64,000 nt of DNA from Patescibacteria group bacterium (GCA_016860985.1 BOKM01000001.1:92185-156184), one strand, 5' to 3'; positions 8,021-32,392 are shown, counted from the stretch's first letter. Made by a program: numbers and translations. Notes: a model not told the origin generated them from the letters alone.

Positions 8021-8025
8021 ACACA

Positions 8026-8901: not shown

Positions 8902-8902
8902 T

Positions 8903-8913
8903 GTGATATAATA
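8903..8913 (+). promoter_or_regulatory. Candidate extended -10 promoter element (TGtgaTATAAT) upstream of a ~190-nt leader for the DEAD-box helicase
   Basis: The sequence tgtgatataat gives an exact TGn + TATAAT match. It lies in the 204-bp intergenic region upstream of the helicase start. Confidence 0.3.
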
Positions 8914-9104
8914 CGCTTACAAAGCGATTCATAGGCTGCTCAACATAAATCGTAGCCTCTTTCAGAAATGAAAGTTTTGGACTAAAGCTTCGGTTGTTAA
9001 TAACTCCTGGGGCTTGTGCCTCGGGATACAGATATTCCCACATTACAAGGCATTATCAGAATTGATTGTGTCGTTTTGTGCGAACTTAATTAACAACCAT
9101 TATT

Positions 9105-10352
9105 ATGGCTTTTCGCGGAAATCACGCTCCTAGAGGCAATCATGCCGGAGCAAACAATAACAATAGAAGTCGTTTTAGGAGTGCAGCTCCACAACGAGGT
9201 CGTTCAAGAAACAGAGGAAGAGGAGAAACTTATATTGATGAACGCAAGTTTATCAATAAGGCTCAAGCTCTTGAATTAGAGGCGCCATACAAGCACTCTT
9301 TTACTTATGCAGAACTTCCAATCAATGCAACATTAAAAAATAATATTGCACAGAAAGGGTTTAACGCACCAACACCAATTCAAGATCAAGCTATCCCACA
9401 TATTCTTGCAGGAAAAGATATTCTTGGAATAGCAAATACAGGTACAGGTAAAACTGCCGCCTTTCTTATCCCCTTAATCGAAAAAGTTGCAAAAAATCCA
9501 CTCGAAAAAGTACTAATCATTACTCCAACTCGAGAACTTGCAGAACAAATTGCAGATGAATTGTACTTGCTTACTTGGGATTTACGAATGTCAGGAGCGA
9601 TGTGTATCGGTGGTGCAAATATTTCTAGTCAAATTTCACAATTGAGACGTGGACCACAATTCGTTGTTGGAACACCAGGTCGATTAAAGGATCTTATTGA
9701 TAGAAAAGTACTCAGTCTTTCTTCGTTCGGTTCAATCGTCTTAGACGAAGTTGATCGAATGTTAGATATGGGCTTTATTAATGATATTAAATTCCTTATT
9801 GGCTTCTTACCAAAAGAGAAACAATCACTCTTCTTCTCCGCAACCATGGATCGACGAATTGAAGAAATTATCAACATGATTTTAAAACCTGATCATGTAA
9901 AAGTATCAGTGAAAAAAGGTGAAACAGCTGCCCACATTGATCAAGATGTCATAAGAGTCGGTACAAGAGAAGAAAAGATAGCAAAACTTGAAGAACTGTT
10001 GCGAAAAGATGCCTTTGAGCGAGTGCTCGTTTTCATCAATATGAAATGGCACGTAGAAAAGCTCGAGCAGTATCTTCAGAAAAAAGGGTTTAAAGTTGAC
10101 TCCATTCATGGTGACAAGCGACAAAGTCAAAGAAGCCGTGCAATCGAGAACTTTAAATCAGGCCGAGTAAATGTACTTCTTGCAACTGACGTTGCAGCAC
10201 GAGGGCTTGATATCGATAATATCACTCACGTGATCAATTTTGATGTACCAAATAGTTACGAAGATTACGTTCATAGAATTGGACGAACCGGCCGAGCCAA
10301 CAAAAAAGGAACTGCCTTGACCTTCGTTCCTCATCAAAATCGAGGGTACTAG
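9105..10352 (+). CDS. DEAD-box ATP-dependent RNA helicase with an Arg-rich N-terminal extension
   Basis: The helicase motifs are all present: Q-motif, GKDILGIANTGTGKTAAF, PTRELA, the DEAD-type VLDEVDRM, SAT, and HRIGRTGRA. Confidence 0.9.
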   Translation: MAFRGNHAPRGNHAGANNNNRSRFRSAAPQRGRSRNRGRGETYIDERKFINKAQALELEAPYKHSFTYAELPINATLKNNIAQKGFNAPTPIQDQAIPHILAGKDILGIANTGTGKTAAFLIPLIEKVAKNPLEKVLIITPTRELAEQIADELYLLTWDLRMSGAMCIGGANISSQISQLRRGPQFVVGTPGRLKDLIDRKVLSLSSFGSIVLDEVDRMLDMGFINDIKFLIGFLPKEKQSLFFSATMDRRIEEIINMILKPDHVKVSVKKGETAAHIDQDVIRVGTREEKIAKLEELLRKDAFERVLVFINMKWHVEKLEQYLQKKGFKVDSIHGDKRQSQRSRAIENFKSGRVNVLLATDVAARGLDIDNITHVINFDVPNSYEDYVHRIGRTGRANKKGTALTFVPHQNRGY

Positions 10353-13547: not shown

Positions 13548-13913
13548 ATGAGCAAATACCTACTTTGGTGGGGAATTATTTGGCTACTTATTGGAGGAAT
13601 TGTTTACGCATTTGTGGGTAAGGAAACGCCTGATGTAATCTACGGTATTGCACTAGCAGCCTTTATTAGCCTTGTCTTTTTGTTTAAATCACTCTCAGAA
13701 CAATACGAGGGAGAAATTATTGAAGTAAAAGAAGAATCCAAATATGTTTCAGACGATGATGGCGGTTCAGTAGAAAAAACAATCGTTGCAATAATTCAAT
13801 TATCAAACGGCAAGACCAAAAAATTACAGGCGCTTAAAGGGTACGAAGTTGGGAACTACATCATAAAAAAGAAAGGCGAACCCTCTCCAAAGATATACGA
13901 GAAAAAGCCCTAA
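13548..13913 (+). CDS. Small membrane-anchored hypothetical protein
   Basis: It has two N-terminal TM segments and a Lys-rich tail. Confidence 0.35.
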   Translation: MSKYLLWWGIIWLLIGGIVYAFVGKETPDVIYGIALAAFISLVFLFKSLSEQYEGEIIEVKEESKYVSDDDGGSVEKTIVAIIQLSNGKTKKLQALKGYEVGNYIIKKKGEPSPKIYEKKP

Positions 13914-15511
13914 TTCTTACAGAGTATTTTTACATCCTTTGCATCTTCTGCTACCGTCACTTGTGCGGTTTTTGTGTCCGCAATCGCCGAAACCAAAGAC
14001 GTATAGCATGTTCTAGTGGTGCCAGTTACGTTAGCGATACCCCATCCTAAAAAGGCATCGATTGTAATGGTGGTCTTGCTTGGATCATATCCCAACTTGT
14101 AAGGGTTTGTGGTAATACTTTTTTTGCCGTCGCTCTTTGTCACTAAGAATAGCGGAAGATCACCTGCAACATAATGCCGATGGCTATACCCAATGAGTGT
14201 GTCTGTCGACTTAAAGACTCCTCTTCTGATTCTTCCGTCTGGTTTTGTTATCGCAAGTTGTATTTTCCCAACACTATTTGAATCAACTGAAACCTTTTCT
14301 ACCATCACCTGTTTTGAAAGGATATTTCCATAGTTCTGAATTTCAGCCAAAGTCCCAATAATTAGATAGTAACGAATCATCACTCGTTCTTGCTGTTGGA
14401 GATTCAGTTTATAAACAATAGCCCCTGCTTTTCCACCGTTATCTGGATTTAAGTCACTAGGGATAGCCCCATACACGCCAGCAAGACGTACAATACCTGG
14501 TTTTGTCTCGAGAGGGAGTTGTCTGCTTGGCGAGAATACAATTCCTAGACCAACACTTGAAGGCGAAGTTCCATTAAGTACCGCAATCCAACCGTTTGTT
14601 TCGTTTCTTTTAACAACGGTTTTATCTGAATCAATAAACTGTGTGTCTTTATCGACCCAACGATACGAACCATCAGGCTTGCTGACCACTTGATACGGTA
14701 AAGTGCTCGGTCGCACCGCAAACCAAGGACTTACAAAATGATCCATTGGAACAGTTCCACCCCAGCGAGAGTAAATGTGCGTTACCTCAATAACACCATC
14801 ACCAAGATCTCTTAGTTCTTTCGTGTAGAGCAATTGATTATCCTTCCACGTAAACGGTATATGCGCGTGTTGTGGCCAAGATTCCCAAGAAACTGCTTTG
14901 CCATCATCTGATTTTTGTAATGGCATAGAAAAGTTATAAAGTGAATGGGACAAGAGTTTCTTATTTGGATCAACATCGCTTTTTCTGTACACACCGGCTT
15001 CGTGAATATCCCAATCGACTTTTGTATTCATTTGCTCGATATCAGATGAAGAAATAACCTGTTGCATCACCTCGTCAACCCACTGACCGTGCGTGACTCT
15101 CTGGTATGGCATTGTTTCTCCGTAACCATCTACATAAAGTGAATAAATTTGCCCACCTTGACCAAGCTTTAGCGTCCAGTTCTTATACGACTTCTTTGAA
15201 TCAGATTCTTTATGCACTAGCATTGCTTTGAATACTTTTGATTCGTCAACTCCATTTTGAACCCATTTATGGAGATTATTCGTGCTGGAGATGTTTAGTG
15301 TGTATTTTCCAGGATTAATATACGCACCCGCATTACTTTTTGGAACCTGTAGGTATTGTGTGGAATCTGCTTGATACGCTTCGCTTTGAGTGCTCTCAAA
15401 CAATGTGTCTCGGTTAAGAAGTACTAAGGGGACACCAACAGCGAATATTCCAGAAATGGCAAACAATGTAACTCGAAGAACGATATTAGTCTTCTTTTTG
15501 GGCAATTGCAT
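13910..15511 (-). CDS. Large membrane-anchored extracytoplasmic protein of unknown function
   Basis: An N-terminal TM (LRVTLFAISGIFAVGVPLVLL) is followed by about 500 aa of Trp/Tyr-rich beta-type sequence. No motifs were recognised. Confidence 0.45.
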   Translation of the reverse strand: MQLPKKKTNIVLRVTLFAISGIFAVGVPLVLLNRDTLFESTQSEAYQADSTQYLQVPKSNAGAYINPGKYTLNISSTNNLHKWVQNGVDESKVFKAMLVHKESDSKKSYKNWTLKLGQGGQIYSLYVDGYGETMPYQRVTHGQWVDEVMQQVISSSDIEQMNTKVDWDIHEAGVYRKSDVDPNKKLLSHSLYNFSMPLQKSDDGKAVSWESWPQHAHIPFTWKDNQLLYTKELRDLGDGVIEVTHIYSRWGGTVPMDHFVSPWFAVRPSTLPYQVVSKPDGSYRWVDKDTQFIDSDKTVVKRNETNGWIAVLNGTSPSSVGLGIVFSPSRQLPLETKPGIVRLAGVYGAIPSDLNPDNGGKAGAIVYKLNLQQQERVMIRYYLIIGTLAEIQNYGNILSKQVMVEKVSVDSNSVGKIQLAITKPDGRIRRGVFKSTDTLIGYSHRHYVAGDLPLFLVTKSDGKKSITTNPYKLGYDPSKTTITIDAFLGWGIANVTGTTRTCYTSLVSAIADTKTAQVTVAEDAKDVKILCKN

Positions 15512-19240: not shown

Positions 19241-19567
19241 CTATTTCTGGAATTTCTTTACGACAACTTCCCATTCGCTCATCAATTTTTCTTTGAGCGC
19301 AAGAAGGTCTTCTTTATCAAAAGTTTTGACTTTCTCATACATCGCAGTTACTTCTTCTACTGCATTCTCGTATGCTTCTTTTGAAACTTTCTTTGCATTT
19401 TTTAACATCTTTTCAACATCTTTACGCATTTGTTTTGCGTATTCTGCAAGATCTTTTCGAAGTTCTTTTCCAGACTTTGGTGCGGTAAGTAAGCCAGTTG
19501 CAACTCCAACGGCTGCTCCAACTACGGCTCCTGTGGCAAGTCCTTTAAGGAATGATTTCATACTCAT
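19241..19567 (-). CDS. YtxH-like protein (DUF948)
   Basis: The YtxH signature GLLTAPKSGKELRKDL is present. A coiled-coil tail follows. Confidence 0.6.
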   Translation of the reverse strand: MSMKSFLKGLATGAVVGAAVGVATGLLTAPKSGKELRKDLAEYAKQMRKDVEKMLKNAKKVSKEAYENAVEEVTAMYEKVKTFDKEDLLALKEKLMSEWEVVVKKFQK

Positions 19568-19602: not shown

Positions 19603-20097
19603 CTATATGTGCCCTGTTGCTTCAAGCATTCCGATGTATGCGATAGCAACAGCATCGGCAACATCATCAGTTTTGAATTTCTCTTCTATAGAAAAAAGTG
19701 AACTAATGGCTGCTTGCATCTCCTTTTTAGTTGCTTTACCTGTTCCCACAATTTTCTTTTTTAGTTGCATCGGATGCAATTCCCTAATTTCTAGATTTTC
19801 TAATGCAGTAGTAACCTTCAAAACTCCCCTTGCCTCTGCGATAAGCATTGCCGTCTTTGCATTAATTGAAAAAAATAGTTTTTCGATAAAAACAATATCC
19901 GGTGAATGTGTGTGAATAAGTTGCTGCAAATCGATTGCAATCTCGGCAAAGCGCGCCGCAGAATCTCTCGTTTTATCTGTGGTTATTAACCCGTAATGTA
20001 CAAGTTCTATTCCCTCATCGGTTTCTCGAATAATTGCCCACCCGAGGCGATCAATTCCTGGGTCAAGACCTAATACAATCATACTGCAGCATACCAA
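19603..20097 (-). CDS. ruvC: Crossover junction endodeoxyribonuclease RuvC; the probable start is the internal MIVLGLDPG, about nt 20082
   Basis: The catalytic motif MIVLGLDPGIDRLGWAII is present. The RuvC fold carries the acidic catalytic residues. Confidence 0.85.
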   Translation of the reverse strand: MVCCSMIVLGLDPGIDRLGWAIIRETDEGIELVHYGLITTDKTRDSAARFAEIAIDLQQLIHTHSPDIVFIEKLFFSINAKTAMLIAEARGVLKVTTALENLEIRELHPMQLKKKIVGTGKATKKEMQAAISSLFSIEEKFKTDDVADAVAIAYIGMLEATGHI

Positions 20098-20852
20098 ATA
20101 TGTTGAACATCTTGCTGATCGTCGAGGATACTCAAAAAAGATTCAAAACTACCCCATTTTTCATCTGCAAGAGTAATCGGTGTATTTGCTTCAAAGTGTT
20201 GTCCAGATCCAACTATGCTGTAACCGAGCTCGCGTATTCGTGAGGCAACCTGAGCAAGCCTATTCATTGGTACTTTTACCTGTAAAATGCTTTCTTCATC
20301 TGGATCTTCGGTGATATCTTCAATTTCTGGAACATCCATAAGCTCAAACGTAGCAGACTCTTTATCCACAGGAATTTCGGTATCCGATTCTCCAAACTTT
20401 TCTGCTGATTTTGTTTTAACACAACGTACCGTAACACGACCTGATTCAGTAAATTGCCACATTACGGCGCCAATTGAACCGAGTTCCCCTCCGGATTTCG
20501 AAAATATATTACGAATCTCATTAACTGTTCGATTTTTGTTATCAGTAATTGCAGAAACAACTACAGGAATTTTAAAAGGACCATATCCCTCGTACACTAC
20601 CTTTTCGAGTTGTGTAGTTGAGTCTTCGCCAGTTCCCTTTTTGATTGCTCTTTCGATATTGTCTTTTGGCATATTTACAGAGCGTGCATAGTCGACTGCG
20701 ATACGTAAGGTCAAATTGTGATTGGGATCGCCACCTCCATCACGTGCTGCGAGTATGATTTGCTGTGCAGCTTTAGTGAAAACCACTCCGCGTTTTGCGT
20801 CTGCCTTTCCCTTTGCTTGCTGAATGTTGTGCCAATGTGAATGTCCTGCCAT
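20079..20852 (-). CDS. yebC: YebC/PmpR-family transcriptional regulator
   Basis: The N-terminus reads MAGHSHWHNIQ..KGKADAKRG.VFTK. It lies upstream of ruvC, which is the conserved arrangement. Confidence 0.9.
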   Translation of the reverse strand: MAGHSHWHNIQQAKGKADAKRGVVFTKAAQQIILAARDGGGDPNHNLTLRIAVDYARSVNMPKDNIERAIKKGTGEDSTTQLEKVVYEGYGPFKIPVVVSAITDNKNRTVNEIRNIFSKSGGELGSIGAVMWQFTESGRVTVRCVKTKSAEKFGESDTEIPVDKESATFELMDVPEIEDITEDPDEESILQVKVPMNRLAQVASRIRELGYSIVGSGQHFEANTPITLADEKWGSFESFLSILDDQQDVQHIWYAAV

Positions 20853-20937
20853 GAAGAATTATACAACGAACAACAACCTCATTGACCAGTTTTAGTGCAG
20901 TGATACAATCCTATAACATAACTTTAAAAGTCATTCT

Positions 20938-22137
20938 GTGACTATAGAAACACTACTTTCGAGAGTTTCATTTGACCGAGACCCCATATCAGACACTAAA
21001 ATTGGTGAAACTGTTTATTATTCCGAAAACGCACATTTGCAAAAACTTGATATTTCACAAGGTGCTTGGAATCGCCCCAATTTGGAGCATTTCAAAGAGA
21101 CAGTACAAAGTGAACTTCGAAATCCCGCGAGTTCAGCAAATATTCGCCAGATTGCACTAACCCACGCGACACTATGGCACCAAGAATTGCAACTTGTTCA
21201 TGGTAAATCCGAAGAACAGGCACAAGAAATTACTAGAAAAGAGATTGAACGTGTAGCACTTCTTGCACAAGAAGTACCAGAGTTTAAGAACTTTTCTGAT
21301 GTGGTCTACGACTCAATGGAGTTTTATAGACAAAAGGAGGGACTTACCACCATTCCTGGTCTAACAAGCGAAAACGGAATACAAGCGACTAAAGAAGAAT
21401 TTGGTACGGATTTACTTTACGTTCTTCTTGTGGACTTAAGATTTAGAACTGGGAACGGAGATATTATTGGTTTAAATCATGACGCTGTAAAAGCACTAAG
21501 CACAGAAGATATTGAAGAAGCAAAACGTAGGCTTGTATCGATACTAGAACATGCAGACGAGAAAACCCAGGAAGCCTCATTTTCAATGCGACATATTCAC
21601 AAAACCATTCTTTCAACTCCAGACGAAGCAGACAATGCCTATTTAATTATGAGCCGGGCAGCAGCCAAAGCATACCATGGCGGCCCAGACACACTATTGC
21701 AGAATGTTAGGGCGATGTTTTGGTTTATTGCAAGTCACCTTGAAGGCGAGCAGGTACCAGAATTGACTTCTCTTCCGATGAAAGAAGAAAAAATTCCATT
21801 TGCCCCCCCACGAGAAGTTCCAAGATGGATAAAACGAATCACGAAACTAGCGGTACTCGGAAGCGGATACTATTTATGGCAGCAGGCACGAGATCTTAAC
21901 AATCGAATTATGGGCAATAACCACGAAGGGTGCGTGGTTTCAGGTATGGTACGTATAGAAAGAGTTACCTTTAACATCGGCACTTTTCTAACGGCATGGC
22001 ATTATGTAAGTAATGCACTCGCACGGATAGATGCTGCAAAAAACTACGAAGAATTCGCGAAGAGTGCTGCATTTTTCCCTGGCGCTGCACTACTTACTGC
22101 AATCGGAGAAACAATTGCATCAAAGGTCGAAGTTTAG
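20938..22137 (+). CDS. Hypothetical protein, paralog A of a tandem pair
   Basis: The N-terminal ~230 aa align to the N-terminus of the next ORF. No known motifs were found. Confidence 0.45.
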   Translation: MTIETLLSRVSFDRDPISDTKIGETVYYSENAHLQKLDISQGAWNRPNLEHFKETVQSELRNPASSANIRQIALTHATLWHQELQLVHGKSEEQAQEITRKEIERVALLAQEVPEFKNFSDVVYDSMEFYRQKEGLTTIPGLTSENGIQATKEEFGTDLLYVLLVDLRFRTGNGDIIGLNHDAVKALSTEDIEEAKRRLVSILEHADEKTQEASFSMRHIHKTILSTPDEADNAYLIMSRAAAKAYHGGPDTLLQNVRAMFWFIASHLEGEQVPELTSLPMKEEKIPFAPPREVPRWIKRITKLAVLGSGYYLWQQARDLNNRIMGNNHEGCVVSGMVRIERVTFNIGTFLTAWHYVSNALARIDAAKNYEEFAKSAAFFPGAALLTAIGETIASKVEV

Positions 22138-22210
22138 GCATTTTGTTCGCTTGACGAAGACTCTGGATTTTGTCATAATGTCTTGACACTATAGTCTTAC
22201 AAAGAGTATA

Positions 22211-24193
22211 ATGTCCTATAATAAATTTTCTACTGTCAAAATGACAACTAGAGAGCCAGAAGCAAACGAATATGGAATGCAATTAGGTCGAACATATTTT
22301 GCACCTCGACCAAATGAAAAAGGTGCAATCACTTTTCACGCAGAAACTCTAAAAGATGGGGAATTCCTTTCACCTGAAGCAACAAAAGAAGGTCGAGAGG
22401 CAATTCACTCAGCGCTTACAAAAAAAGACAACGTTTCAACTCCAGAACTCGTCGCCTCACTCTACGCTATTCGTGTAAGTGAAATTCATAATCAAACAGG
22501 CGCAAACGAAGCTGAAGCACAAAAAATTGCCGACCGTGAAATTGAAATTGTAAACGAACTTGTAACGAACAACGAAGCGTTTAGAACAGCTACACAAGCA
22601 GCTTATGAAAAAATGCAGGCCGATGCAGCAGAAAAGGTAGCTTCAAAAAAGATTCCAGCATTAACAAAAACAAACGGTGAGGTCGCAAGTCTTGCGGAAT
22701 TTCAAGTCGATGTCGCTTATCTTATGTTGCAAGATCTTTCTCACAACGCATCCCAAGTAAATGCAAGAACCAGATTCACCGCAGTTGCAGCATTACAACC
22801 TGAACAAGATGCAGAAACGAGAGCAGACGCATTCAACGAATTGTTAACAACTGCAGCAGAAGAAGCCTCAAAGGCAACTCCTCTTGAAAAAGCAGACGAC
22901 TACAACCCGAATATTGATCAAGATCACACTACTGCATTCACAGTACTAAGTGCAGCAATGGCACGCGCTTATTCACGCCATGCATTTGCGCACAATGCAG
23001 GTGTCTCTTGGAATATTCTTCTAAAGAAAGAAGTTCTTGATAGGTTCCTAGAGAAAACCCCTGAAGATGATGGCAGTGGCACAAGTGAACCAGCACCGCA
23101 ACCAGGTGGTGAGCCAGGTCCAACTCCAGAACAACCTGCAGCAGACACGCCAGAAGCCGAATCAACCGAGCAAAAGAAACCATTCATGGAAGCATTAATC
23201 GATGGGCTTCGAGCAAATCACAGAGGTATTATCACAGCAGCAGCTATTTTGACTGCAGCCGGTGGTGCCGCATACGAAATTGGACGAAGAAGAGGGCAAA
23301 ATCCCGATAACAATGCAGTAGTCACTCGATTAATGCAAGCAGGAGCTTTTGCAGGTGTAGGACTTGCAGGTGGCTTAATTGCTCGAAATATCGCAAGAAA
23401 CCTTGACAATGCTTCCGACACAACAGAAGCAAACGAAACGAGAAGTACTCTCGCCTATGGATTAGGTGCGGCAGCAGTATTCTATGTTGCACAAGCACTT
23501 TACAGAAATCAAAGACGAGCAGCACGTAACACTGCTAGTGGCGAACCAGCAGCAGGTGAAGGTGAACCAATAAACCCTGATGCTCCAAATACTGTAAATA
23601 CTGGTATTGCTGCGTTAGATAGATTTATCAATGCAATACGTGCAAACGACAGAGCACTTTCTGAAAGAAAGCTTCAAAGAGATTTTAACCTTGAACTTCA
23701 AGGTGCAGAGAACACATCTAAAGCAAGGATTGAAGCTGTATTAAACGTTGTTGCAAAAACAAATGAAGTTGACGAACAAATCAGCATTGTCCGAACATTA
23801 TCAAGCAGTATTAAATCCTTCATGGGTAAAACCCTTAAAATCGAAGGAAAACCACTTGAATTAGTTGGAACAATGATTGACTTGGTACTCAGCGTTGGTC
23901 AAGCCAATGAAAGAATCGAAAACAAGGGTGCGGATATCCTTGGTGTTTTGAAGGTGTTGGACGACATGAGTGTTGCACAAACAGGGGCAGAACGAATTCA
24001 ATCAATTGTGAAAGAAATTGGTAATTGGTTATTCGTTGATCCAAAGAAACAGCTTGAAGAGCAAGCAGCTCATAATGCTCGAATTCAAGAAATGATTAAG
24101 GAATTCGAGGAAGCAAACCTTTATCCTGAACAGCAAGCTATGAACAGAGATGGTAGCGGCACTCCCGCACCAGAACCAGTGGCAGCGACATAG
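22211..24193 (+). CDS. Hypothetical protein, paralog B, with a Pro-rich linker, three Gly/Ala-rich amphipathic or TM segments, and a C-terminal coiled-coil region
   Basis: Its N-terminus is homologous to the preceding ORF (EAEAQKIADREIEIVNEL vs EEQAQEITRKEIERVALL; IPALTKTNGEVASLAEFQVDV vs IPGLTSENGIQATKEEFGTDL). Confidence 0.45.
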   Translation: MSYNKFSTVKMTTREPEANEYGMQLGRTYFAPRPNEKGAITFHAETLKDGEFLSPEATKEGREAIHSALTKKDNVSTPELVASLYAIRVSEIHNQTGANEAEAQKIADREIEIVNELVTNNEAFRTATQAAYEKMQADAAEKVASKKIPALTKTNGEVASLAEFQVDVAYLMLQDLSHNASQVNARTRFTAVAALQPEQDAETRADAFNELLTTAAEEASKATPLEKADDYNPNIDQDHTTAFTVLSAAMARAYSRHAFAHNAGVSWNILLKKEVLDRFLEKTPEDDGSGTSEPAPQPGGEPGPTPEQPAADTPEAESTEQKKPFMEALIDGLRANHRGIITAAAILTAAGGAAYEIGRRRGQNPDNNAVVTRLMQAGAFAGVGLAGGLIARNIARNLDNASDTTEANETRSTLAYGLGAAAVFYVAQALYRNQRRAARNTASGEPAAGEGEPINPDAPNTVNTGIAALDRFINAIRANDRALSERKLQRDFNLELQGAENTSKARIEAVLNVVAKTNEVDEQISIVRTLSSSIKSFMGKTLKIEGKPLELVGTMIDLVLSVGQANERIENKGADILGVLKVLDDMSVAQTGAERIQSIVKEIGNWLFVDPKKQLEEQAAHNARIQEMIKEFEEANLYPEQQAMNRDGSGTPAPEPVAAT

Positions 24194-24237
24194 CAATTAA
24201 CTTTGAGTGGTAACTAAGGAATACCACCTAAAGTATA

Positions 24238-24271
24238 GAAAAGAGGCCAGCTTTCGCTGGCCTCTTTTTTT
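24238..24271. terminator. Strong bidirectional rho-independent terminator
   Basis: A perfect 9-bp stem (gaggccagc / gctggcctc) has a 4-nt loop. It carries a T7 run 3' on the plus strand and an A-run 5', which gives a U-run on the minus strand. Confidence 0.7.
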
Positions 24272-24363
24272 ATACATTTGCGATAGACACAGCTAAACTC
24301 ACTATTTCTGTTACATGAATAATTGCCGAAAACCAAGGTTTGAACTCAAATAATGATTGTTCC

Positions 24364-26790
24364 TTACTCCCCCTTATTTTCTACCCACCTCTGGATCTTT
24401 TCTTCTATCACATCTCGGGGAACAGCATACTTTTCACGTGATTTCTGTTTAATAATGTCTTTGTACCCAAAAGGTTGATACCTAAAGGGCATAGATACTG
24501 CGCTAAATGGCTCTGAAATACGGTCATTAATCGTCATTCGAAGATAAAGGTGGTAATTCGGCAAAGATAGAATATCTTCAGGGGTCACATACGGCGCAAA
24601 TTCTTGCGAAAGTACCATCGCGTCTTTTTGGCTAACGCTAAAGGTAATCATTGTACCAACATTACCAAAAATACCCGCTCGCATTTCAATGGGGAGTTGT
24701 TCGGTAAATTGATGGTTAATTACCAAAGACAAACGATATTTTCGCGCCTCGGAAAGGATATTCACAAACGCATCGGTCGTAAAGCTTTGCACCTCATCTA
24801 TATACAAACTAAAGTCGTTGCGTTCGTCATCGGGCATGTCTACCCTTTCCATTGCTGCGGTGTAAATACGAGCAATGAGCAAACCTCCAAGAAGTGACGT
24901 ATTTTCTTCGCCGATTCGACCTTTCGAGAGATTGGCTATAAAGATCTTTTTGCTGTCAATCATTTCTCGTATATTAAAGGTCGATTTTGTTTGACCAAGA
25001 ATATTTCGTGTAATACGTGGAGAAAGATAACGGCCGATTTTGTTTTGAATTGGCGCTACAGTATCCGAAAGAAGCTTTCTGTTTTCTTCAATCATGCTGA
25101 ATTCTTCTCTCCAAAAGCGAAGAATCATTGGATCTTTTACGTGCGACAAAACTCTTCGCCTATATTCTCCATCCGTTAACATGCGCTGAACAGAAAGGAG
25201 TGTTGTCCCTTGAGAATCGAGTGCAGAAAGAATTGTATTGTAAAGAATATACTCTAAACGTGGCCCCCATGAATCAAAGTACTTTTTAAACACGCCAATA
25301 ATATTGTCTGCAACTAAGTCGCGCTGTGACTTATCTTTAACGTATATTGGGTTAAAACCGACTGGATATTCAACATCTCCAGGGTTAAAGTAAATGACAT
25401 CATCAACACGATGCGCAGGAATGTGATCGAGAATAAACTCAGCTGTTTCTCCGTGTGGATCGATAAGTCCAACACCTTCGCCTGCCATAATATCCGAAAC
25501 AATCATATTTCGCATAAGAACCGTTTTACCAGTACCTGTACGACCAATAATGTATGCATGGCGACGTTTATCATTCTTTTTTATGCCAAACATCTGACTT
25601 TCACCACGGTAATTTGTTTTTGCGATTATCGTGCCTTCGTCGATTGGGAGATCTACAGGTGGTGGTAACTTTCCTGCTGTTGTTACAAACAATGACGTTG
25701 CTCCGCCGGTTGTATTCGGCAGATGGTACAACGATGCGATTTCTTCAATATTAAGAATCTCTGGGTGCTGCAAACTCAAGTAACGCTCCTTCATATGAGT
25801 AAATACTTGCAACGGCGCTTTTGCAAGGTGAAGGGAGAAAGCATTTAAGTGTGCGGTTGCATATTGCCTAAAAGAGGCAGCAATCCCTTCAAATATCTGA
25901 ACTGCTCTAGTTGGTTCACTACTTTTCGCTAATATTCTAATTGAAACCTGAAATCCTTGTTTTTCTGCCTTTGCCTCAACTCGCTTAATTTCTTCTTCTT
26001 GATATGGTTCGAGACGTACAGTAGGTGCTTTTGGCTGTTGCTGAGGTTTTGTTGGATCATAGGTTAATGAATCAAAAAAATATCGAAAGAATCCTGAAAT
26101 AACACCCCAAAACGCCTTCCAAAATCCCCCACTTTTATCAAATATATTACTACCCTCAGCTCTCAGTGCAGAAATATACTTTTGCGAAACCTTTTGCCAC
26201 AGGTTTGGGTACGGTCGAATAGTAAACTGAATCCACGCTTCTTCGTCGCCGTGTAACTCGCTAATTGCACCAGTAATGCCAGAAAGGGGGTCGACATCAA
26301 AATCCTTAAAGGTTTTTAAAGGGAAAATATGTTCTCGTTCAAGAATAATTTCGCCGGCAGAAACCTGAACCGTAGAATCCCACATTGTGGCTGTATCCAT
26401 ATAATCGGGAATAACAGAAATTTCTGCTGCCGGGTACTGTGCGTACACCTGCCCTTTTACAAACGATGCAATTTCTTCGTTCACAATAATAAAAAACTGT
26501 ACTCCTACTTTTGAGTTCGCAGCCAGCTCGAGTGAAAGCATTGGTACTGTGGCTGTTTCCTTGTATAACCCATGTAAAGAGGCAAACAGCTGCTCAGCTG
26601 CAAGTGGCGTTTTATCGTTATTACGTGGAACTGCAATTTTAAGTACTACTTTTTTATTTCCGAGTAATTTTTCTTCTGCACCACTTGGAAAGGCTTCATC
26701 CCCCTTCTTTTTTGTTGCAAAAAGAGCAATCACCAGTACAAACAATATAACAACGAGAAGTATGAGAAGAAGGACTAAACCGAGATTCAT
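24364..26790 (-). CDS. Membrane-anchored P-loop ATPase of the VirB4/TraG-VirD4/FtsK-HerA clade
   Basis: There is an N-terminal TM. Walker A (YIIGRTGTGKTVLM) lies at about aa 420 and Walker B (FSLYIDEVQSF) at about aa 655. The clade-typical ARKYRLSLVINHQ motif follows. Confidence 0.55.
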   Translation of the reverse strand: MNLGLVLLLILLVVILFVLVIALFATKKKGDEAFPSGAEEKLLGNKKVVLKIAVPRNNDKTPLAAEQLFASLHGLYKETATVPMLSLELAANSKVGVQFFIIVNEEIASFVKGQVYAQYPAAEISVIPDYMDTATMWDSTVQVSAGEIILEREHIFPLKTFKDFDVDPLSGITGAISELHGDEEAWIQFTIRPYPNLWQKVSQKYISALRAEGSNIFDKSGGFWKAFWGVISGFFRYFFDSLTYDPTKPQQQPKAPTVRLEPYQEEEIKRVEAKAEKQGFQVSIRILAKSSEPTRAVQIFEGIAASFRQYATAHLNAFSLHLAKAPLQVFTHMKERYLSLQHPEILNIEEIASLYHLPNTTGGATSLFVTTAGKLPPPVDLPIDEGTIIAKTNYRGESQMFGIKKNDKRRHAYIIGRTGTGKTVLMRNMIVSDIMAGEGVGLIDPHGETAEFILDHIPAHRVDDVIYFNPGDVEYPVGFNPIYVKDKSQRDLVADNIIGVFKKYFDSWGPRLEYILYNTILSALDSQGTTLLSVQRMLTDGEYRRRVLSHVKDPMILRFWREEFSMIEENRKLLSDTVAPIQNKIGRYLSPRITRNILGQTKSTFNIREMIDSKKIFIANLSKGRIGEENTSLLGGLLIARIYTAAMERVDMPDDERNDFSLYIDEVQSFTTDAFVNILSEARKYRLSLVINHQFTEQLPIEMRAGIFGNVGTMITFSVSQKDAMVLSQEFAPYVTPEDILSLPNYHLYLRMTINDRISEPFSAVSMPFRYQPFGYKDIIKQKSREKYAVPRDVIEEKIQRWVENKGE

Positions 26791-26801
26791 GCTATGACAT
26801 T

Positions 26802-27818
26802 CTACCTGTTAAGTAAAAATACTACAATATCGCCTGTTGTAACGATTCCGGGAGGTCGGCCGACTCGAATTTCGACTCTTCCTTCTGCAAACGAACTTTT
26901 AATCATTGCGAGTGTTCTGGAATACGATGTTTCGTTTTTTACATAAATAACCGCCATTTTATCTTGCAGAGGTTCATGAGTCGCATTTCCGACCCTTGAA
27001 ATATCAATACCCAACATTGCCCACTTTCTTGAGAAGATGCTTGCATAACCTTCTATCACGGTTGCGTTGTAGACTTCAACAAAAGCTTGTTCCTGAGCAA
27101 TATCAGAAATTTCAAAAAAGGCAGGGAACTGCTCTTTGAACGCATCAAACGTGATAACAGCGACTTCTGAACTATCGTCTAATTCGCGTATCTGAAGTAA
27201 TGCACTATTAAAGCGTTTCTTATCTCCCTTTTCGACGAGTGAAAGAATTTCCTGCGTTTCTGCAACAGTAAGTGAAGAGCTTAGTCCAGCTTCTTTATCT
27301 TCTACAATAACATACTCGATAGGAATACCGCTGGTTAACGCCAATTGCTCAAGTACATAGCAATAGTTTACCTCTCCGGTTTCTAAACGACTTAATCGAA
27401 CAAATTCACCGACTTGAGTCGACGTAAAGTTTTTTGAAAAATAGACTGGTACCCAATCCTTTTCTCTTAACTCAATAGACTTTAGGCCACTTACCCCACT
27501 AGGCGCAGTTAAGAACAGTTCTTGAACCTCTGCTCCAGAAGTTTTAAACACCACTCCGTACATTGGTTTTGCCTTTACAGAAAGAAACGTTGCATCGCAA
27601 GCAGAAAAGAGTTGTGCGTTTGGCTTATAGGATTCTGAAATTAACTTGTAGATGTACTGCCAACCGAGCAAAACTACAGCAACAATAATACTAACAGCGA
27701 ACGCAAGTTGTAAGGCTTTAATGAGAAAAGAATACACAGACGGAGAAATCGAAAGCTTTGGCTTTACCTTGGGCTTTTGCTTCATTACATTGTGACCGGC
27801 GCGACGTGGGGGCATCAC
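26802..27818 (-). CDS. Membrane-anchored extracytoplasmic protein in the dcw neighbourhood; possibly an FtsQ/DivIB-like or LytR-like accessory protein
   Basis: It has a single N-terminal TM and an alpha/beta ectodomain of about 280 aa. It sits between mraY and the ATPase. No motif was recognised. Confidence 0.35.
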   Translation of the reverse strand: MMPPRRAGHNVMKQKPKVKPKLSISPSVYSFLIKALQLAFAVSIIVAVVLLGWQYIYKLISESYKPNAQLFSACDATFLSVKAKPMYGVVFKTSGAEVQELFLTAPSGVSGLKSIELREKDWVPVYFSKNFTSTQVGEFVRLSRLETGEVNYCYVLEQLALTSGIPIEYVIVEDKEAGLSSSLTVAETQEILSLVEKGDKKRFNSALLQIRELDDSSEVAVITFDAFKEQFPAFFEISDIAQEQAFVEVYNATVIEGYASIFSRKWAMLGIDISRVGNATHEPLQDKMAVIYVKNETSYSRTLAMIKSSFAEGRVEIRVGRPPGIVTTGDIVVFLLNR

Positions 27819-27852
27819 GTTATCATACGATATTTTGAGTATCTAGGCAACG

Positions 27853-28956
27853 CTAACCAAAATACACTTGTGCCAAGATTGCTAGAAAAACAATACCGAG
27901 ATTGAATAGCCAGAACCGCATAACGACTTTTGGTCCAGGCCACCCCAAGGCCTCAAAATGATGGTGAACTGGTGCTATTTTGAAAATCTTTCGTTTTAAG
28001 AAGCGGATCGATAGGAGCTGTATTGTGCTTGTTGCTAAGTCAAATAAGTACGGAAGCATTAAGACAATGAGGGCTGGTAAGAGGTTACCGTACAAACCAA
28101 GCAATAGAAATACTGGTCCCATAGGCATCGCCCCTGGGGCACCCATATAAAATCGTGCAGGTGGAATATTAAAATACAAGTACACGATTAATACACCAAG
28201 CAGCACACCTACTACCGCAAGCGCAGTTGTATTTGGAGACGTAAAGAAGTTTGCAGGGTACGCAAGCATCAAAAGGGTAAAACCGAGTAACGTAATTATA
28301 TACATTCCCGAAGAAAGCCCATCAATTCCATCGATAATTTCGGTCGCATATGAAAAGAACGTTGAAACGATTGCCAATCCCACAATACCCAGAACAGAGT
28401 TTAACTGAAGCGAGAGTCCAAGTAAGTCTACTGATTTTATTCCTGCAACATGAACGATAAGCAATGCAACTCCAACATTTACGGCCATCGAAACTAGTAA
28501 TTTTCCGACTCGCCACTCGAATTTATTCTGAAACTCACGAAAAGCAACGTTATTCTTTGTTACTACATCTAAAATAGCATCGACCATTCCATATAATCCA
28601 ACAAGAAGCATGATTAAGGCAGCGGCTTTTATAAGCGGAATGTGCCAGAAGGCAAGCAACAAAACTGCTGGAACCGTAAGCCAAATCAAAATACCACCAT
28701 TGCTTGGTGTCCCCGAATCTTTCGCGTGGATTTTCATCCATTCTTCGTTTGCCTTACTAGGCATTGCAATATGCTTAATTGTGAATTGAAGCTTATAAAG
28801 CATATTTATGAGAGGAACAACCCAAAGTCCGGCCGAAACCGCGCCGATAACAACCCACAGTGCGACTTCTTTGACCATGAAGAATGAGATTGAGGTAAGC
28901 ATATTTTGTGTATTATTTAATTCTTGGTACGCCAAGATCGTCTTTGATTGTATCAA
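27853..28956 (-). CDS. mraY: Phospho-N-acetylmuramoyl-pentapeptide transferase
   Basis: The MraY motifs DGIDGLSSG and KIAPVHHHFEALGWPGPKVVMRFW are present. Confidence 0.9.
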   Translation of the reverse strand: MIQSKTILAYQELNNTQNMLTSISFFMVKEVALWVVIGAVSAGLWVVPLINMLYKLQFTIKHIAMPSKANEEWMKIHAKDSGTPSNGGILIWLTVPAVLLLAFWHIPLIKAAALIMLLVGLYGMVDAILDVVTKNNVAFREFQNKFEWRVGKLLVSMAVNVGVALLIVHVAGIKSVDLLGLSLQLNSVLGIVGLAIVSTFFSYATEIIDGIDGLSSGMYIITLLGFTLLMLAYPANFFTSPNTTALAVVGVLLGVLIVYLYFNIPPARFYMGAPGAMPMGPVFLLLGLYGNLLPALIVLMLPYLFDLATSTIQLLSIRFLKRKIFKIAPVHHHFEALGWPGPKVVMRFWLFNLGIVFLAILAQVYFG

Positions 28957-30649
28957 ATATTTTCATCCATAGGGGAAGTACCGTTAAGTTCGCTAAATCG
29001 CCCTTTCTTGGATTTTCAATTTTTACTAACATAATAAAGCGAGCATCTATGGCCGGAGAAAAACCAACGAAGGTTACATTTACTCTATCCTCGTAATAAC
29101 CGGACGTATCTGCTCGTGCGACCTGGGCTGTACCAGTTTTACCGGCTATACTGTATACACCTTTATATTTTGCCATATCTTTGCGAGTAAATGTTGCATA
29201 TTCCATCATTTTTGCTACTTTATCTGCAGTTTCAGGTGTAAATATTTGGCCCGCACTTGAGGGCTTAATAATGATTTCCTCTTCGTTGTTATATATCTTT
29301 TTTACAAGCATTGGCTGCATTCGTTCCCCATGATTTGCAAGAGCAGAAAGTGCCGATGCCACCTGCAATGGCGTTGCTGAAATTGCTTGACCATACGAAG
29401 TAGTTGCAATATCGATTTTTAACCACTTATCTGGTGTCTTGAGAAAACTGGTTTCCTCTTCGTGAATGCCGATACTAGAAGAAGCACCAATCCCCAATTT
29501 AAGTAGGTAATCGTACATTGAAGCTGCACCAACTGACAACCCATACGTTGCAGCACAAATGTTATCAGAATACTGAAGAGTTTCTTTTGGCGTTATCTTT
29601 CCATACTTAACGAAGTTAAAGTTGTAGATTGTCTTATCATCCATTTTTAACTTTCCAGTATCGTTACAAATATCATCTTCATCTAGTTTTCCATCGTCCA
29701 TTGCCATTGCAATGGTAAGTGGTTTTTGTACTGACCCATATTCATACGGACTCGAAACAACCTTGTTGCGAAAAACCGATACATTCTTAATCTTCCAGAA
29801 CTCATTAGGGTCATAATCAGGATAATTAGCCATTGCGATTATCTCACCCGTTTTTGGTGCAAGAATTATCACACTTCCCGCATCTGCTCGCTGCTCTTGC
29901 ACGCCTTCTTCGAGTAATTTTTCAACCTTTTTCTGAATTCCTGAGTTGACAGTTAGAACAATGTTTTTACCTTCACGGTATTGAACGTTTTTGTATTGCT
30001 TACTGATAATCGCCTTTCCACTTAAATCTTTTTCCTGCTGACTTGCACCTTCTTTCCCTTTTATATCACCCCAAAAAAAGCCTTCAATTCCATAATTACC
30101 TTTTGGCCGCCCGAAACTGTCTGTACCCACATACCCAATAATATGTGAAAACAGCTCACCATTCGGATACAACCTCTTTATTGAGTCCTCGGTATATACT
30201 CCAAGTAGCTTTTTTTCTTCCAAAATTTCTCGTTGCCGCTTATTAATTCCTCGATAGATAACTTGGTAGGTTAACCTATTATCGTTAAATCCCGAAGTTA
30301 ATTCTTCGACCTCTACATCAAGCACGGACGAAATTTCTTGAAAAATTGTAGCTTTTTCCTTTAAAAATTTTGCCTGATCAACTCCATTTGTTAATGAAAT
30401 TATCACATTCCAAGAAGGGCTATCGACCGCAAGCACAACACCATCTTGAGTATAGATGGTACCTCGTTTGGTAAACACGTCCTGTTCTGAGTTTAACTGT
30501 GCAGAGGCAAGCGCACTAAAGCGCTCGTAACTACCTACCTGCCAGCGAAATAACTGAACCACAACAAGGAGAAACAACAAAACGATTGAACCAAAAACAA
30601 AAGTCGGAAAATCAATTCTTTTACTAGTAGGAACTTTTTTATTATTCAT
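28913..30649 (-). CDS. ftsI: Class B penicillin-binding protein (FtsI/PBP2-type transpeptidase)
   Basis: An N-terminal TM is present. The transpeptidase motifs are SVQKP (S-x-x-K), YSDN (S-x-N-like) and KTGTA. Confidence 0.85.
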   Translation of the reverse strand: MNNKKVPTSKRIDFPTFVFGSIVLLFLLVVVQLFRWQVGSYERFSALASAQLNSEQDVFTKRGTIYTQDGVVLAVDSPSWNVIISLTNGVDQAKFLKEKATIFQEISSVLDVEVEELTSGFNDNRLTYQVIYRGINKRQREILEEKKLLGVYTEDSIKRLYPNGELFSHIIGYVGTDSFGRPKGNYGIEGFFWGDIKGKEGASQQEKDLSGKAIISKQYKNVQYREGKNIVLTVNSGIQKKVEKLLEEGVQEQRADAGSVIILAPKTGEIIAMANYPDYDPNEFWKIKNVSVFRNKVVSSPYEYGSVQKPLTIAMAMDDGKLDEDDICNDTGKLKMDDKTIYNFNFVKYGKITPKETLQYSDNICAATYGLSVGAASMYDYLLKLGIGASSSIGIHEEETSFLKTPDKWLKIDIATTSYGQAISATPLQVASALSALANHGERMQPMLVKKIYNNEEEIIIKPSSAGQIFTPETADKVAKMMEYATFTRKDMAKYKGVYSIAGKTGTAQVARADTSGYYEDRVNVTFVGFSPAIDARFIMLVKIENPRKGDLANLTVLPLWMKIFDTIKDDLGVPRIK

Positions 30650-30983
30650 TGCTACTAATTACTTGAGAACCTGGATTCACATACAACACTTTGCTTGGCG
30701 ACGTGACATACCCAGCTGCTCTTTCGGCGACCAAAAACTTACTAGAACGAAGTATAGCATTTTGCTCTTCATAATCTAGATAAGTTGTATTGAGCATTCT
30801 ACTTTGAGAATCCATTACACCTACCATTTGGGCAACAGGTTCATAACGCGCAGCTACTACGAATTGAGTCAACACAAGTGCACATGTGAGAAGAAATGCA
30901 GTTACATTGAAAATGTTTGATGAATTCGTCTTTGAGATATTACTTTGCATGTTTGATTGTGTACAATTTAGCACTTCGCGCAC
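30642..30983 (-). CDS. ftsL: FtsL-like small bitopic division protein
   Basis: The gene sits between rsmH and ftsI. It has a single TM and a short ectodomain. Confidence 0.45.
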   Translation of the reverse strand: MREVLNCTQSNMQSNISKTNSSNIFNVTAFLLTCALVLTQFVVAARYEPVAQMVGVMDSQSRMLNTTYLDYEEQNAILRSSKFLVAERAAGYVTSPSKVLYVNPGSQVISSNE

Positions 30984-31911
30984 GTGGATTTACGCGTATT
31001 TCTTTGGCAGAAGGCAGAATGATCTCTGCTTTTGCTCTTACTGTTTGCAAAAAATGATTAACAACTTGCTCCTCGGCACTGTGGTACGTCATAACCAGAA
31101 GTACACCACCAGGTAACAAGCGAGAAAATGCGACTGGGAGGACTTCCTGCAAGTTCCGTAACTCTGTATTCACTGCGATACGCAGAGCAAGAAACAGCAA
31201 GGTTGCGGGATGAATCCTCCCTTTTGAGTTAGCTCGTATTGGGACTACTTTATAAGCAATATCCGTAAGTCTCTTAATATCATTCGAATTGCCAAAGGCC
31301 TTCTCTGTTCTTGCGTTTAAAATTTCATGTGTCAGCTTTGCCGCCAGAGGACCTGGCATTCCGACAGTGTCCCTAAATAAGGAGGCCATTTTCTTATAGG
31401 TAAGAAGGTTCAATAAATCATAAGCAGCTACAGCATACAAATCTGGGCTCATTCGCATATCTACTTTACCGCTTCCCGTAAAACTAAATCCTCTTTGTTT
31501 TTGTACAAGCTGTCGTGATGAAATACCGAGATCTAACAACATTGCAGCTATTGAATTACCGTAGCCAGTTTTTTTGGAAATTGAATCTAATATCTGCGGT
31601 AGGTGCGCAAAATTGTCTTTCGCAACAATCCACTTTGTGCTTGAATCAGCAGACTCTAATAGTGTTGGTGCGGTTTTTCCTTGAGTTTGGAATGCTTCAA
31701 GTCCAGAAAAGTCCCAATCGATACTCAATAGTCTATTTGCATCAAAAGCATTCACTCGTTTTTCAAATATTGCAGAAGAATGTCCACCGTCACCAAAGGT
31801 TCCATCAACGATCCATCCTTGTTTAGGGGCGACGGCAATTTCATCCAGCGTTTCCTGCAACAAAACTGGCTTGTGATATATTTTTTTGGCTGCAGATACA
31901 GTTGTATTCAT
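30940..31911 (-). CDS. rsmH: 16S rRNA (cytosine1402-N4)-methyltransferase RsmH/MraW
   Basis: The motifs HKPVLLQETLD and VDGTFGDGGHS are present. Confidence 0.9.
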   Translation of the reverse strand: MNTTVSAAKKIYHKPVLLQETLDEIAVAPKQGWIVDGTFGDGGHSSAIFEKRVNAFDANRLLSIDWDFSGLEAFQTQGKTAPTLLESADSSTKWIVAKDNFAHLPQILDSISKKTGYGNSIAAMLLDLGISSRQLVQKQRGFSFTGSGKVDMRMSPDLYAVAAYDLLNLLTYKKMASLFRDTVGMPGPLAAKLTHEILNARTEKAFGNSNDIKRLTDIAYKVVPIRANSKGRIHPATLLFLALRIAVNTELRNLQEVLPVAFSRLLPGGVLLVMTYHSAEEQVVNHFLQTVRAKAEIILPSAKEIRVNPRARSAKLYTIKHAK

Positions 31912-31912
31912 G

Positions 31913-32392
31913 TTACGATGATTCCTTTACTGAAATAAGCTCCTGTGCAATGCCATCGGCATTTTCTTCAAGATATGCAGCGCGTTCGTCCCATCGGTTT
32001 TTCTCCCACACTTCGACCCAATTCACGAGGCCGACAAAGACAACTTCCTTTTCTTTTCTGTCAGAATATACCGTATCAGCATATTTTCTAAGAGTTTCAG
32101 GTACAACAATTCGGCCTTGAGAATCTGACGACATCTCGAATGCGCTACCTACAAGAAAACGTAGTGACTCTCGAGCATTTCTATCCAAGAATGAGCGATT
32201 CTCCATAGGTTCAATAAGTTTTTCCCACGACTGCTCTGGGACAATAAGCAAACAACCTTCATACCCTTTGGTTACGACGAACTTATCACCAAGCTTTTTT
32301 CTTAAATACGAAGGAAGTGCAATTCGATGACCTGCTACAACTTTTCCCGTGTACTCTCCAATGAGTTTTGCAGATTCACCAGTTTTCACCAT
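31913..32392 (-). CDS. mraZ: Transcriptional regulator MraZ
   Basis: The two MraZ half-domains are present (GEYTGKVVAGHRIALP...). It is the first gene of the dcw cluster. Confidence 0.85.
   Translation of the reverse strand: MVKTGESAKLIGEYTGKVVAGHRIALPSYLRKKLGDKFVVTKGYEGCLLIVPEQSWEKLIEPMENRSFLDRNARESLRFLVGSAFEMSSDSQGRIVVPETLRKYADTVYSDRKEKEVVFVGLVNWVEVWEKNRWDERAAYLEENADGIAQELISVKESS

Follow-up and report, generated by a model that had tools for sequence, protein, structure and literature searches.

The window analyzed here, a stretch of 64,000 nucleotides from a Patescibacteria group bacterium (GCA_016860985.1 BOKM01000001.1:92185-156184), is a piece of Candidatus Dojkabacteria chromosome bearing tRNA genes, aminoacyl-tRNA synthetases, penicillin-binding proteins (PBPs), and gatB. 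Between yebC and the gene for a membrane-anchored ATPase it carries a tandem pair of open reading frames, ORF1 (a short form) and ORF2 (a long form), whose coordinates and lengths, as first called from the sequence, proved exact (Table 1). Comparison with related loci indicates that the pair belongs to a family that exists as deeply divergent alleles and that whole-gene alleles have evidently been exchanged between strains, with breakpoints at gene borders. In light of these old, divergent, and constrained alleles, their fixed address, and their movement between genomes, we tentatively favor the reading that the pair forms an envelope-associated, strain-specific conflict or recognition locus and not a housekeeping one, a reading of function drawn from evolution and composition only. 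The three features together would be the signature of frequency-dependent selection by a co-evolving partner.

Allele exchange at a fixed chromosomal address

Every family member for which genomic context is available sits between a divergent yebC gene and the convergent ATPase gene (the window and the related loci L001, L002, L015, and L017 to L023). This slot holds a short and a long gene in the window, L023, L022, L021, and L019/L020 (the partial contigs L016/L017 carry the same alleles) and the long gene only in L001 and L018; in L015 a long gene adjoins the ATPase on a contig that begins 40 nucleotides (nt) upstream of it. The member in L002 is split into parts of 128 and 471 amino acids (aa), the larger of which matches the family profile (97.9%, E = 5e-13). 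In L005 (Dojkabacteria cMAG.26; ATPase 84% identical) the slot is occupied by a 648-aa protein without a family match, and in L004 (cMAG.19; ATPase 64% identical) it is empty. The 648-aa protein was considered as a divergent member and rejected (hhalign probability, 1.8%). Eleven distinct slot states were sampled, and 9 of them contain the same family; orthologs of ORF1 occupy the slot at 24 to 98% identity in L023, L022, L021, and L019/L020. In distant Patescibacteria, homologs of the ATPase (38 to 45% identical) lie in other contexts without such a neighbor. A check of co-occurrence found the ATPase beside all family members; L004, L005, and distant Patescibacteria, however, have the ATPase but not the family, and the yebC side is equally conserved.

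Alleles were sampled from about a dozen loci, mostly metagenome contigs. Between the window and L021, identity is 97% for the ATPase, 97% for the PBP, and 95% for MraY but drops to 59% for ORF1 and to 25% for ORF2, whose alignment covers less than half of the protein; between the window and L015, the corresponding values are 91% for the ATPase and 36% for ORF2. On the left, the DNA of L021 and L022 is 98.1% identical across the flank and the short gene and on into the long gene as far as nucleotide 18; on the right, identity resumes, at 96.6%, within about 12 nt of the long-gene stop codon. Between these points the long genes, encoding P0016 in L021 and P0002 in L022, cannot be aligned as DNA, and their N-terminal domains are 27% identical. 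The short genes of the same two loci (P0009 in L022) are 94% identical, which implies that short and long alleles reassort.

The window and L023 provide the converse case. The synonymous substitution rate (dS) is 0.097 for ORF2, 0.6 to 1.2 for most flanking genes, and 0.37 for the short YtxH gene, and a 100-nt sliding comparison delimited a recently exchanged tract around the ORF2 allele that is about 100% identical in nucleotide sequence to L023, with flanks at 75 to 92%. Two lower-identity patches within this tract lie at and just beyond both linkers of the protein. The tract also takes in the codons for the C-terminal 45 residues of the ATPase. What would be expected of an allele cassette was therefore seen in both directions, as divergent alleles in near-identical backgrounds (L021/L022) and as a shared allele in divergent backgrounds (window/L023).

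Within an allele, the ratio of nonsynonymous to synonymous substitution rates (dN/dS) is 0.03 to 0.13 for the N-terminal domain, helices, and tail, where substitutions suffice, and 0.2 to 0.8 for the linkers, which indicates that all folded modules are under purifying selection. The ATPase is nearly invariant while ORF2 alleles swap, so the two do not co-vary. No meaningful flanking direct or inverted repeats or mobile-element genes were found, no integrase lies nearby, and the GC content of ORF1 and ORF2 resembles that of the flanks and so gives no sign of a foreign island; a mobile element or site-specific cassette was rejected on these grounds. The simplest reading is that exchange occurs by homologous recombination in the conserved flanks.

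Many metagenome contigs end inside or beside the slot, within the ATPase gene or at one of the two family genes (L003, L009, L015, L016, and L017). Such breaks are expected if co-existing strains carry different alleles. The locus tells apart strains whose compared flanks are about 98% identical, which makes it both a practical marker and a place where metagenome assemblies break.

Modules and relatives of the family

The original prediction proposed that the two proteins share a homologous N-terminal domain (N-domain) of about 230 aa. BLASTP aligned ORF1 and ORF2 over 95 residues (33% identity, E = 3e-9), and hhalign of the ORF1 family (7 sequences) against the ORF2 family (4 sequences) returned a probability of 98.2% (E = 3e-14) over 222 columns, ORF1 residues 20 to 249 against ORF2 residues 23 to 257. 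The alignment is therefore significant by either method at a limit of 0.01, and its length agrees with the estimate. Both motif blocks that had been described are present (AQEITRKEIERV/AQKIADREIEIV and IPGLTSENGIQATKEEF/IPALTKTNGEVASLAEF), with the described spacing one residue off in places. Homology runs past the N-domain, through the linker, and into three weakly hydrophobic helices, as seen in a 13-member alignment and by tblastn, in which ORF1 residues 21 to 391 match the long form P0011 (E = 5e-17); the C-terminal 100 residues of ORF1 are homologous to the hydrophobic region of the long forms. ORF1, composed of an N-domain, a short linker, and three helices without a tail, therefore corresponds to a long form minus its C-terminal tail, and on these comparisons the two proteins are true paralogs.

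A neighbor-joining tree of the N-domain places the short forms (ORF1, P0007, P0009, and P0017) in their own clade in 246 of 300 bootstraps (82%), and there is no DNA similarity between ORF1 and ORF2. Because of these two observations the duplication is judged to be ancient, and a recent tandem duplication or gene conversion was rejected.

Modeled alone with AlphaFold2 (model m61c04e518b5e; predicted local distance difference test [pLDDT], 87.7; predicted template modeling score [pTM], 0.89), the ORF2 N-domain is predicted to comprise a small beta-hairpin and about 10 helices, with a conserved K-I-P-G-L-T-x-x-N-G loop. The full-length model is unusable past this domain (pLDDT < 50), and fold searches used the N-domain model only. 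The Pro/Glu-rich linker that had been assigned to the downstream copy was recovered at ORF2 residues of about 281 to 325 in the 660-aa numbering; it differs in length among alleles and has a dN/dS of 0.2 to 0.46. The ORF1 linker is 64% identical to its counterpart in L023 (dN/dS, 0.26) and 25% identical to that in L022.

Three Gly/Ala-rich segments, described earlier as amphipathic or membrane spanning, are indeed present in ORF2 (residues 339 to 357, 369 to 395, and 412 to 430), but they are only marginally hydrophobic, and a membrane-spanning character was not supported. Their Kyte-Doolittle 19-mer means are 1.2 to 1.4. With the Hessa scale in its position-independent form, the best 19-mers of the family's hydrophobic helices have summed insertion energies of +4.2 kcal/mol or higher (+4.4/+4.5 for ORF2), and several members, as well as the ORF1 helix region, have no 19-mer below +5 kcal/mol. 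Controls from the same genome (the ATPase N-terminal anchor, MraY, and YtxH) gave sums of -8.5 to +2.2 kcal/mol. These weak scores on both scales indicate that the helices are not classical transmembrane helices; their association with a membrane is possible. The region is constrained in both proteins (dN/dS, 0.05 for ORF1 and 0.05 for ORF2 against L022). A glycine-zipper-like GAFAGV[GA]LA occurs in the helices only of the ORF2, P0002, and P0003 alleles (GAFAGVGLA in ORF2), and a (G/A/S)xxxGxxxG motif is absent from these helices in all short forms and in most alleles; the glycine zipper was therefore rejected as a family hallmark, the motif not being conserved.

The tail is the most allele-specific module of ORF2, unalignable between allele classes and constrained within an allele (dN/dS, 0.04 to 0.12). 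For the proposed coiled-coil tail of about 200 aa, five long helices of 16 to 40 residues are predicted, at low confidence (pLDDT < 50), and the 3.5-residue periodicity is marginal, being reached by about 4% of shuffles. The N termini of ORF1 and ORF2 are hydrophilic and lack a signal peptide. The C termini differ by allele, acidic and Pro-rich in ORF2, Lys-rich in P0011, P0012, and P0014, and neither in others, and no consistent C-terminal translocation signal was seen among the alleles by inspection.

Relatives of the pair are few. Word-indexed searches of 5.8 billion proteins returned three relatives of ORF2 and seven of ORF1, a profile built from both paralogs returned only 10 family clusters when 1.84 billion representative proteins were scanned in full with HMMER, and a third word-indexed protein search with a 13-member profile added nothing. 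GTDB species representatives, JGI metagenome contigs, and IMG/VR viral contigs yielded no further members with the family patterns used, a scan limited in that the most diverse family alignment was too variable to yield patterns. The original prediction had recognized no family for either protein. In agreement with this, scans of ORF1, ORF2, and other members with Pfam, NCBIfam, PADLOC, and PHROGs gave nothing above chance, and searches of the Protein Data Bank (PDB) with single sequences and the 13-member profile gave no match. Pfam gave no match of any kind, LXG and WXG100 domains included, for any of 13 members at E values up to 0.1. PADLOC gave no match for ORF1, ORF2, P0013, or the slot proteins of L002 and L005, and one chance-level match for P0016. 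Foldseek searches with the N-domain model found no match in the PDB (best E value, 0.54; TM score, 0.16) or in BFVD. The family thus appears to be confined to one clade of Candidatus Dojkabacteria, and its proteins seem to belong to no described family or fold among those compared.

One further hit, P0010 from a 1,338-nt JGI contig, is a 406-aa protein that joins the N-terminal half of a rhomboid protease (PF01694) to ORF1 residues of about 190 to 399, with 98% identity in the latter part; the most likely origin is a chimera formed in metagenome assembly and not a real fusion.

Possible functions of the pair

A strain-specific conflict or recognition function could operate as follows. Both proteins would be made in the cytoplasm, given the lack of a signal peptide, and would associate with the membrane or envelope through their three marginally hydrophobic, small-residue-rich helices with no need for Sec-type insertion. 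The allele-specific C-terminal tail, and to a lesser extent the N-domain, would engage a putative external, co-evolving partner, for which a host cell, a phage, or a competing strain is a candidate. Frequency-dependent selection by that partner would keep many old alleles in circulation, and these would pass between genomes by homologous recombination in the conserved flanks. Lacking the tail, ORF1 would probably co-assemble with the long form, or modulate it, through the common N-domain and helices; it would not be an allele-matched partner. ORF1 as the cognate immunity protein or partner of a given ORF2 allele was rejected, as the two alleles reassort independently. Dependence on the neighboring ATPase is possible.

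Loci of this evolutionary type are known. The Bacillus comQXP and Staphylococcus agr pherotype loci, the identity determinants IdsD/IdsE of Proteus, and pilin or phage-receptor allele cassettes are balanced-polymorphism specificity loci. Like the pair, such loci generally have a fixed position, deeply divergent alleles with sharp breakpoints at gene borders, alleles that are common to divergent backgrounds and different in near-identical ones, and purifying selection within alleles. Unlike them, the pair has no sequence or fold relationship to any of these systems and consists of two paralogs instead of a ligand and its receptor. In its evolutionary behavior, then, the locus would be of a known kind, an allele-cassette specificity locus; the protein family itself appears to be undescribed.

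Several points weigh against a specificity function at the envelope. The helices score too low for translocon insertion and, by inspection, break the positive-inside rule; both proteins might instead lie wholly in the cytoplasm. A signal peptide would be usual for a surface protein, and ORF1 and ORF2 have none. The family is dispensable in the related genomes L004 and L005. Balancing selection, finally, is read from two pairwise contrasts and not from a population test. Patescibacteria depend on other cells, yet the proteins behind their strain-level specificity, or behind their conflicts with hosts and phages, are almost entirely uncharacterized. With no detectable relatives, one address, and old, swapped alleles that are each constrained, this locus is a clean candidate for either role.

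Much of the same evidence could describe an anti-phage module of the abortive-infection type, or another defense module, in a variable hotspot, with a cytoplasmic sensor and membrane-perturbing helices drawn into an arms race with phages. The slot content varies as it would for such cargo, being an unrelated 648-aa gene in L005, empty in L004, and a split member in L002. Near-identical strains differ by the replacement of whole alleles, lateral transfer of an allele is seen as well, and metagenome contigs often break at the locus. The weakly hydrophobic helices of proteins without a signal peptide could be a membrane effector. Like the cargo of defense islands and hotspots, the pair occupies a variable slot between core genes that turns over rapidly between close strains. 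We nevertheless regard a defense role as unlikely. No member matches PADLOC or PHROGs above chance, and the Pfam and NCBIfam scans of the family revealed neither a nuclease or NTPase domain nor a sensor or effector domain of any other known type. Unlike typical islands, the slot contains the same family in most genomes and is free of flanking mobile-element genes, repeats, and other mobile-element signatures.

The original prediction favored a different reading. It placed the pair convergent, across a strong bidirectional terminator, with a VirB4/TraG-like membrane ATPase of the conjugation/secretion clade, and it likened a duplicated, diverging, partly membrane-inserting pair with coiled coils to secretion-system substrates or structural subunits. 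The convergent arrangement with an ATPase of the conjugation/HerA-FtsK clade was confirmed, as was the terminator, a 13-bp G+C-rich hairpin, and the pair is truly diverging and modular. The ATPase is of the coupling-protein/HerA-like type, passing the thresholds of TrwB_AAD_bind (31.9 bits; gathering score, 20.5) and DUF87 (27.0 bits; gathering score, 23.2), but it is not VirB4 (12.1 bits against a cutoff of 643 for TIGR00929 and 22.8 bits against 590 for NF045975). A secretion-system context was not borne out. The ATPase gene closes a tightly packed co-directional array, mraZ-mraW-(ftsL)-ftsI-mraY-p338-ATPase, and Pfam scans of the neighbors and large ORFs of the window, which did not extend to every small ORF, found no VirB4, VirB6, or VirB8 genes.

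In the fuller form of that proposal, the pair would be substrates or accessory subunits driven by the adjacent TrwB/VirD4-like ATPase, with the N-domain recognized by it and the tail acting on a host or competitor. We think this distinctly improbable, the argument for it being one of adjacency. Each member with context does adjoin the ATPase, which has an N-terminal membrane anchor (Hessa sum, -8.5), and all-helical proteins with marginal helices and no signal peptide fit the behavior of proteins kept soluble before membrane insertion. Orphan VirD4-like ATPases without an assigned function number in the thousands in Patescibacteria: a preprint counts 5,713 VirD4-like genes in 2,918 genomes, only 148 of them near virB4, and suggests that they were possibly exapted for other functions (10.1101/2025.01.22.634366). 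Like VirD4/TrwB substrates of type IV secretion systems, the pair adjoins a TrwB_AAD_bind/DUF87 ATPase with a membrane anchor and is Sec independent; unlike them, it has no channel genes found nearby and no conserved C-terminal signal, its C termini being acidic in some alleles and lysine-rich in others. Against the proposal, synteny is kept on both sides of the slot, so that the adjacency is possibly only historical, and the genes are convergent and not co-transcribed. No gene of the region is more conserved than that of the ATPase (99.8% aa identity at a dS of 0.70; dN/dS, 0.003), which does not co-vary with ORF2 alleles and is conserved where the family is absent. The role of the ATPase may be related to the cell cycle or to DNA and not to conjugation.

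A bolder form of this idea, which we regard as a long shot, would make the pair a new class of Patescibacteria strain-identity or host-range determinant that is Sec independent and delivered by the orphan DUF8128/TrwB-like ATPase to the cell surface or host membrane, with a swappable tail setting which host or host defense is handled. If so, it would supply a first function for the thousands of orphan VirD4-like ATPases of candidate-phyla bacteria and a genetic marker of host specificity. If the ATPase does not handle the pair, the locus would still offer a clearly bounded case of balancing selection in an uncultivated lineage.

Comparison with type VII secretion systems (T7SS) raises a related possibility, which we consider very unlikely, that the pair encodes a polymorphic, membrane-depolarizing toxin of the LXG/T7SS type with an N-terminal trafficking domain, a variable toxin part, and ORF1 as immunity protein or chaperone. 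Resemblances to LXG effectors such as TelE, EsxX, and TspA, and to the strain-variable modules downstream of essC, include an all-helical N-terminal module that is more conserved than the C-terminal part (here unalignable), small-residue-rich helices, the lack of a signal peptide, an adjoining FtsK/HerA-superfamily membrane ATPase, and strain-to-strain cassette variation by recombination. ORF2 carries a Gly/Ala-rich helix with a GxxxGxxxA motif, and glycine-zipper LXG toxins are documented (PMC10434224, PMC12744356). In contrast to these effectors, the pair shows no LXG or WXG100 homology and has no T7SS genes among the ORFs scanned, its glycine-zipper motif is missing from most alleles and all short forms, and its neighboring ATPase is single-domain, TrwB-like, and a member of the dcw operon. 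There is also no cognate immunity gene: a terminator stands directly 3' of ORF2, ORF1 does not co-vary with the long allele, one short allele being found beside both P0002 and P0016, and the short gene is missing in L001 and L018, which means that ORF1 cannot be the cognate immunity protein.

Least probable, in our view, is a poorly constrained, lineage-specific structural or regulatory envelope or division protein that diverges by neutral drift, for which the position directly downstream of a dcw-like array and a domain-linker-helices-tail layout reminiscent of Gram-positive division scaffolds can be cited, because it explains neither unalignable alleles inside 98% identical flanks nor the sevenfold lower dS of ORF2 than of its neighbors, and because the modules are strongly constrained within alleles (dN/dS, 0.04 to 0.13) and the family is absent from the related genomes L004 and L005.

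Transcription signals and neighboring genes

The coordinates of the pair, its modules, and its surroundings are collected in Table 1. Promoter calls are consensus matches only, and the promoter-like sites are putative. Each of the two genes has a promoter-like site of its own, and the terminator 3' of ORF2 is common to ORF2 and the convergent ATPase gene, its stem bordered by an A-run and a T-run, one on each side. The second site 5' of ORF2, TTGACA-18-TATAAT (22183 to 22212), matches the consensus at 12 of 12 positions and overlaps the ATG at 22211, which leaves the start of ORF2 ambiguous between 22211 and 22241. The true start may be the ATG at 22241; in P0001, which is 97% identical to ORF2, gene callers placed the start at the equivalent position. 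The first 18 nt of ORF2 (MSYNKF) are kept even where the remaining gene is replaced (L021 versus L022), and this conservation despite replacement suggests that they may be promoter or leader instead of coding sequence.

Table 1. Features of the locus and its surroundings; positions are those of the window unless another locus is named, and ORF2 residues follow the 650-aa numbering
Feature	Position	Strand	Remarks
ORF1, short-form paralog	20938-22137	+	399 aa, GTG start
ORF1 N-terminal family domain	20938-21741	+	aa 1-268; hhalign vs ORF2 family; dN/dS 0.08-0.10 vs L023
ORF1 variable Pro/Glu-containing linker	21742-21825	+	aa 269-296
ORF1 three weakly hydrophobic helices	21826-22134	+	aa 297-399; homologous to central region of long forms
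ORF2, long-form paralog	22211-24193	+	660 aa, or 650 aa from ATG 22241
ORF2 N-terminal family domain	22241-23050	+	about residues 1-270; dN/dS 0.03-0.05
ORF2 Pro/Glu-rich disordered linker	23051-23185	+	residues 271-315; pLDDT about 33
ORF2 three Gly/Ala-rich marginally hydrophobic helices	23186-23536	+	residues 316-432
ORF2 short second linker		+	residues 433-455
ORF2 C-terminal helical tail	23606-24190	+	residues 456-650, about 195 aa
Sigma-70-like promoter (putative) 5' of ORF1	20882-20909	+	TTGACC-16-TACAAT, TG extension, 10/12 matches
Two promoter-like sites 5' of ORF2	22151-22212	+	TTGACG-17-CATAAT and TTGACA-18-TATAAT
Recently exchanged recombination tract with ORF2 allele	about 22100-24500	.	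borders from window vs L023
Bidirectional intrinsic terminator	24239-24268	.	13-bp stem, 7 G-C pairs
yebC (TACO1/YebC family)	20079-20852	-	conserved left border of slot
Membrane-anchored TrwB/VirD4-like (HerA-FtsK superfamily) ATPase	24364-26790	-	DUF8128 N-region; last gene of dcw-like array
dcw-like array genes beyond ATPase	26802-32392
338-aa protein	26802-27818	-	between mraY and ATPase
YtxH-like protein	19241-19567	-	108 aa
ORF without Pfam match	13910-15511	-	533 aa
ORF without Pfam match	3784-5682	-	632 aa
Split member in slot of L002 (CAZGEO010000002)	8493-10294	-	128 + 471 aa
Unrelated protein in slot of L005	8420-10366	-	648 aa
Empty slot of L004	8466-8484

The genes around the pair are yebC, ruvC, ytxH, mraY, ftsI, mraW, and mraZ, and the larger ORFs of the window are housekeeping genes. 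The ATPase is 82 to 86% identical to those of several related metagenome-assembled genomes, including the complete Candidatus Dojkabacteria genome CP129470.1 (84%), and is also recognized by the PADLOC model mad8 (E = 1e-14) and by HerA models. In the distant Patescibacteria L010, L012, and L013 (positions of about 3570 to 9087), the DUF8128 ATPase occurs as a tandem paralog pair of about 800 and about 950 to 1,030 aa, convergent with ORFs whose N-terminal sequences resemble secDF, and there is no ORF2-like neighbor.

The 338-aa protein, whose gene separates mraY from the ATPase gene, matches no family beyond a weak hit to LytR_C and evolves faster than its neighbors, with 50 to 60% identity where the ATPase has 77 to 85%. 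Of the two other ORFs without a Pfam match, the 533-aa gene is present also in the close relative L023. The YtxH-like protein (PF12732, E = 1.6e-18) is 100% identical in amino acid sequence to the L021, L022, and L023 copies despite a dS of 0.37 to 0.66, an unusually strong constraint for a small membrane protein.

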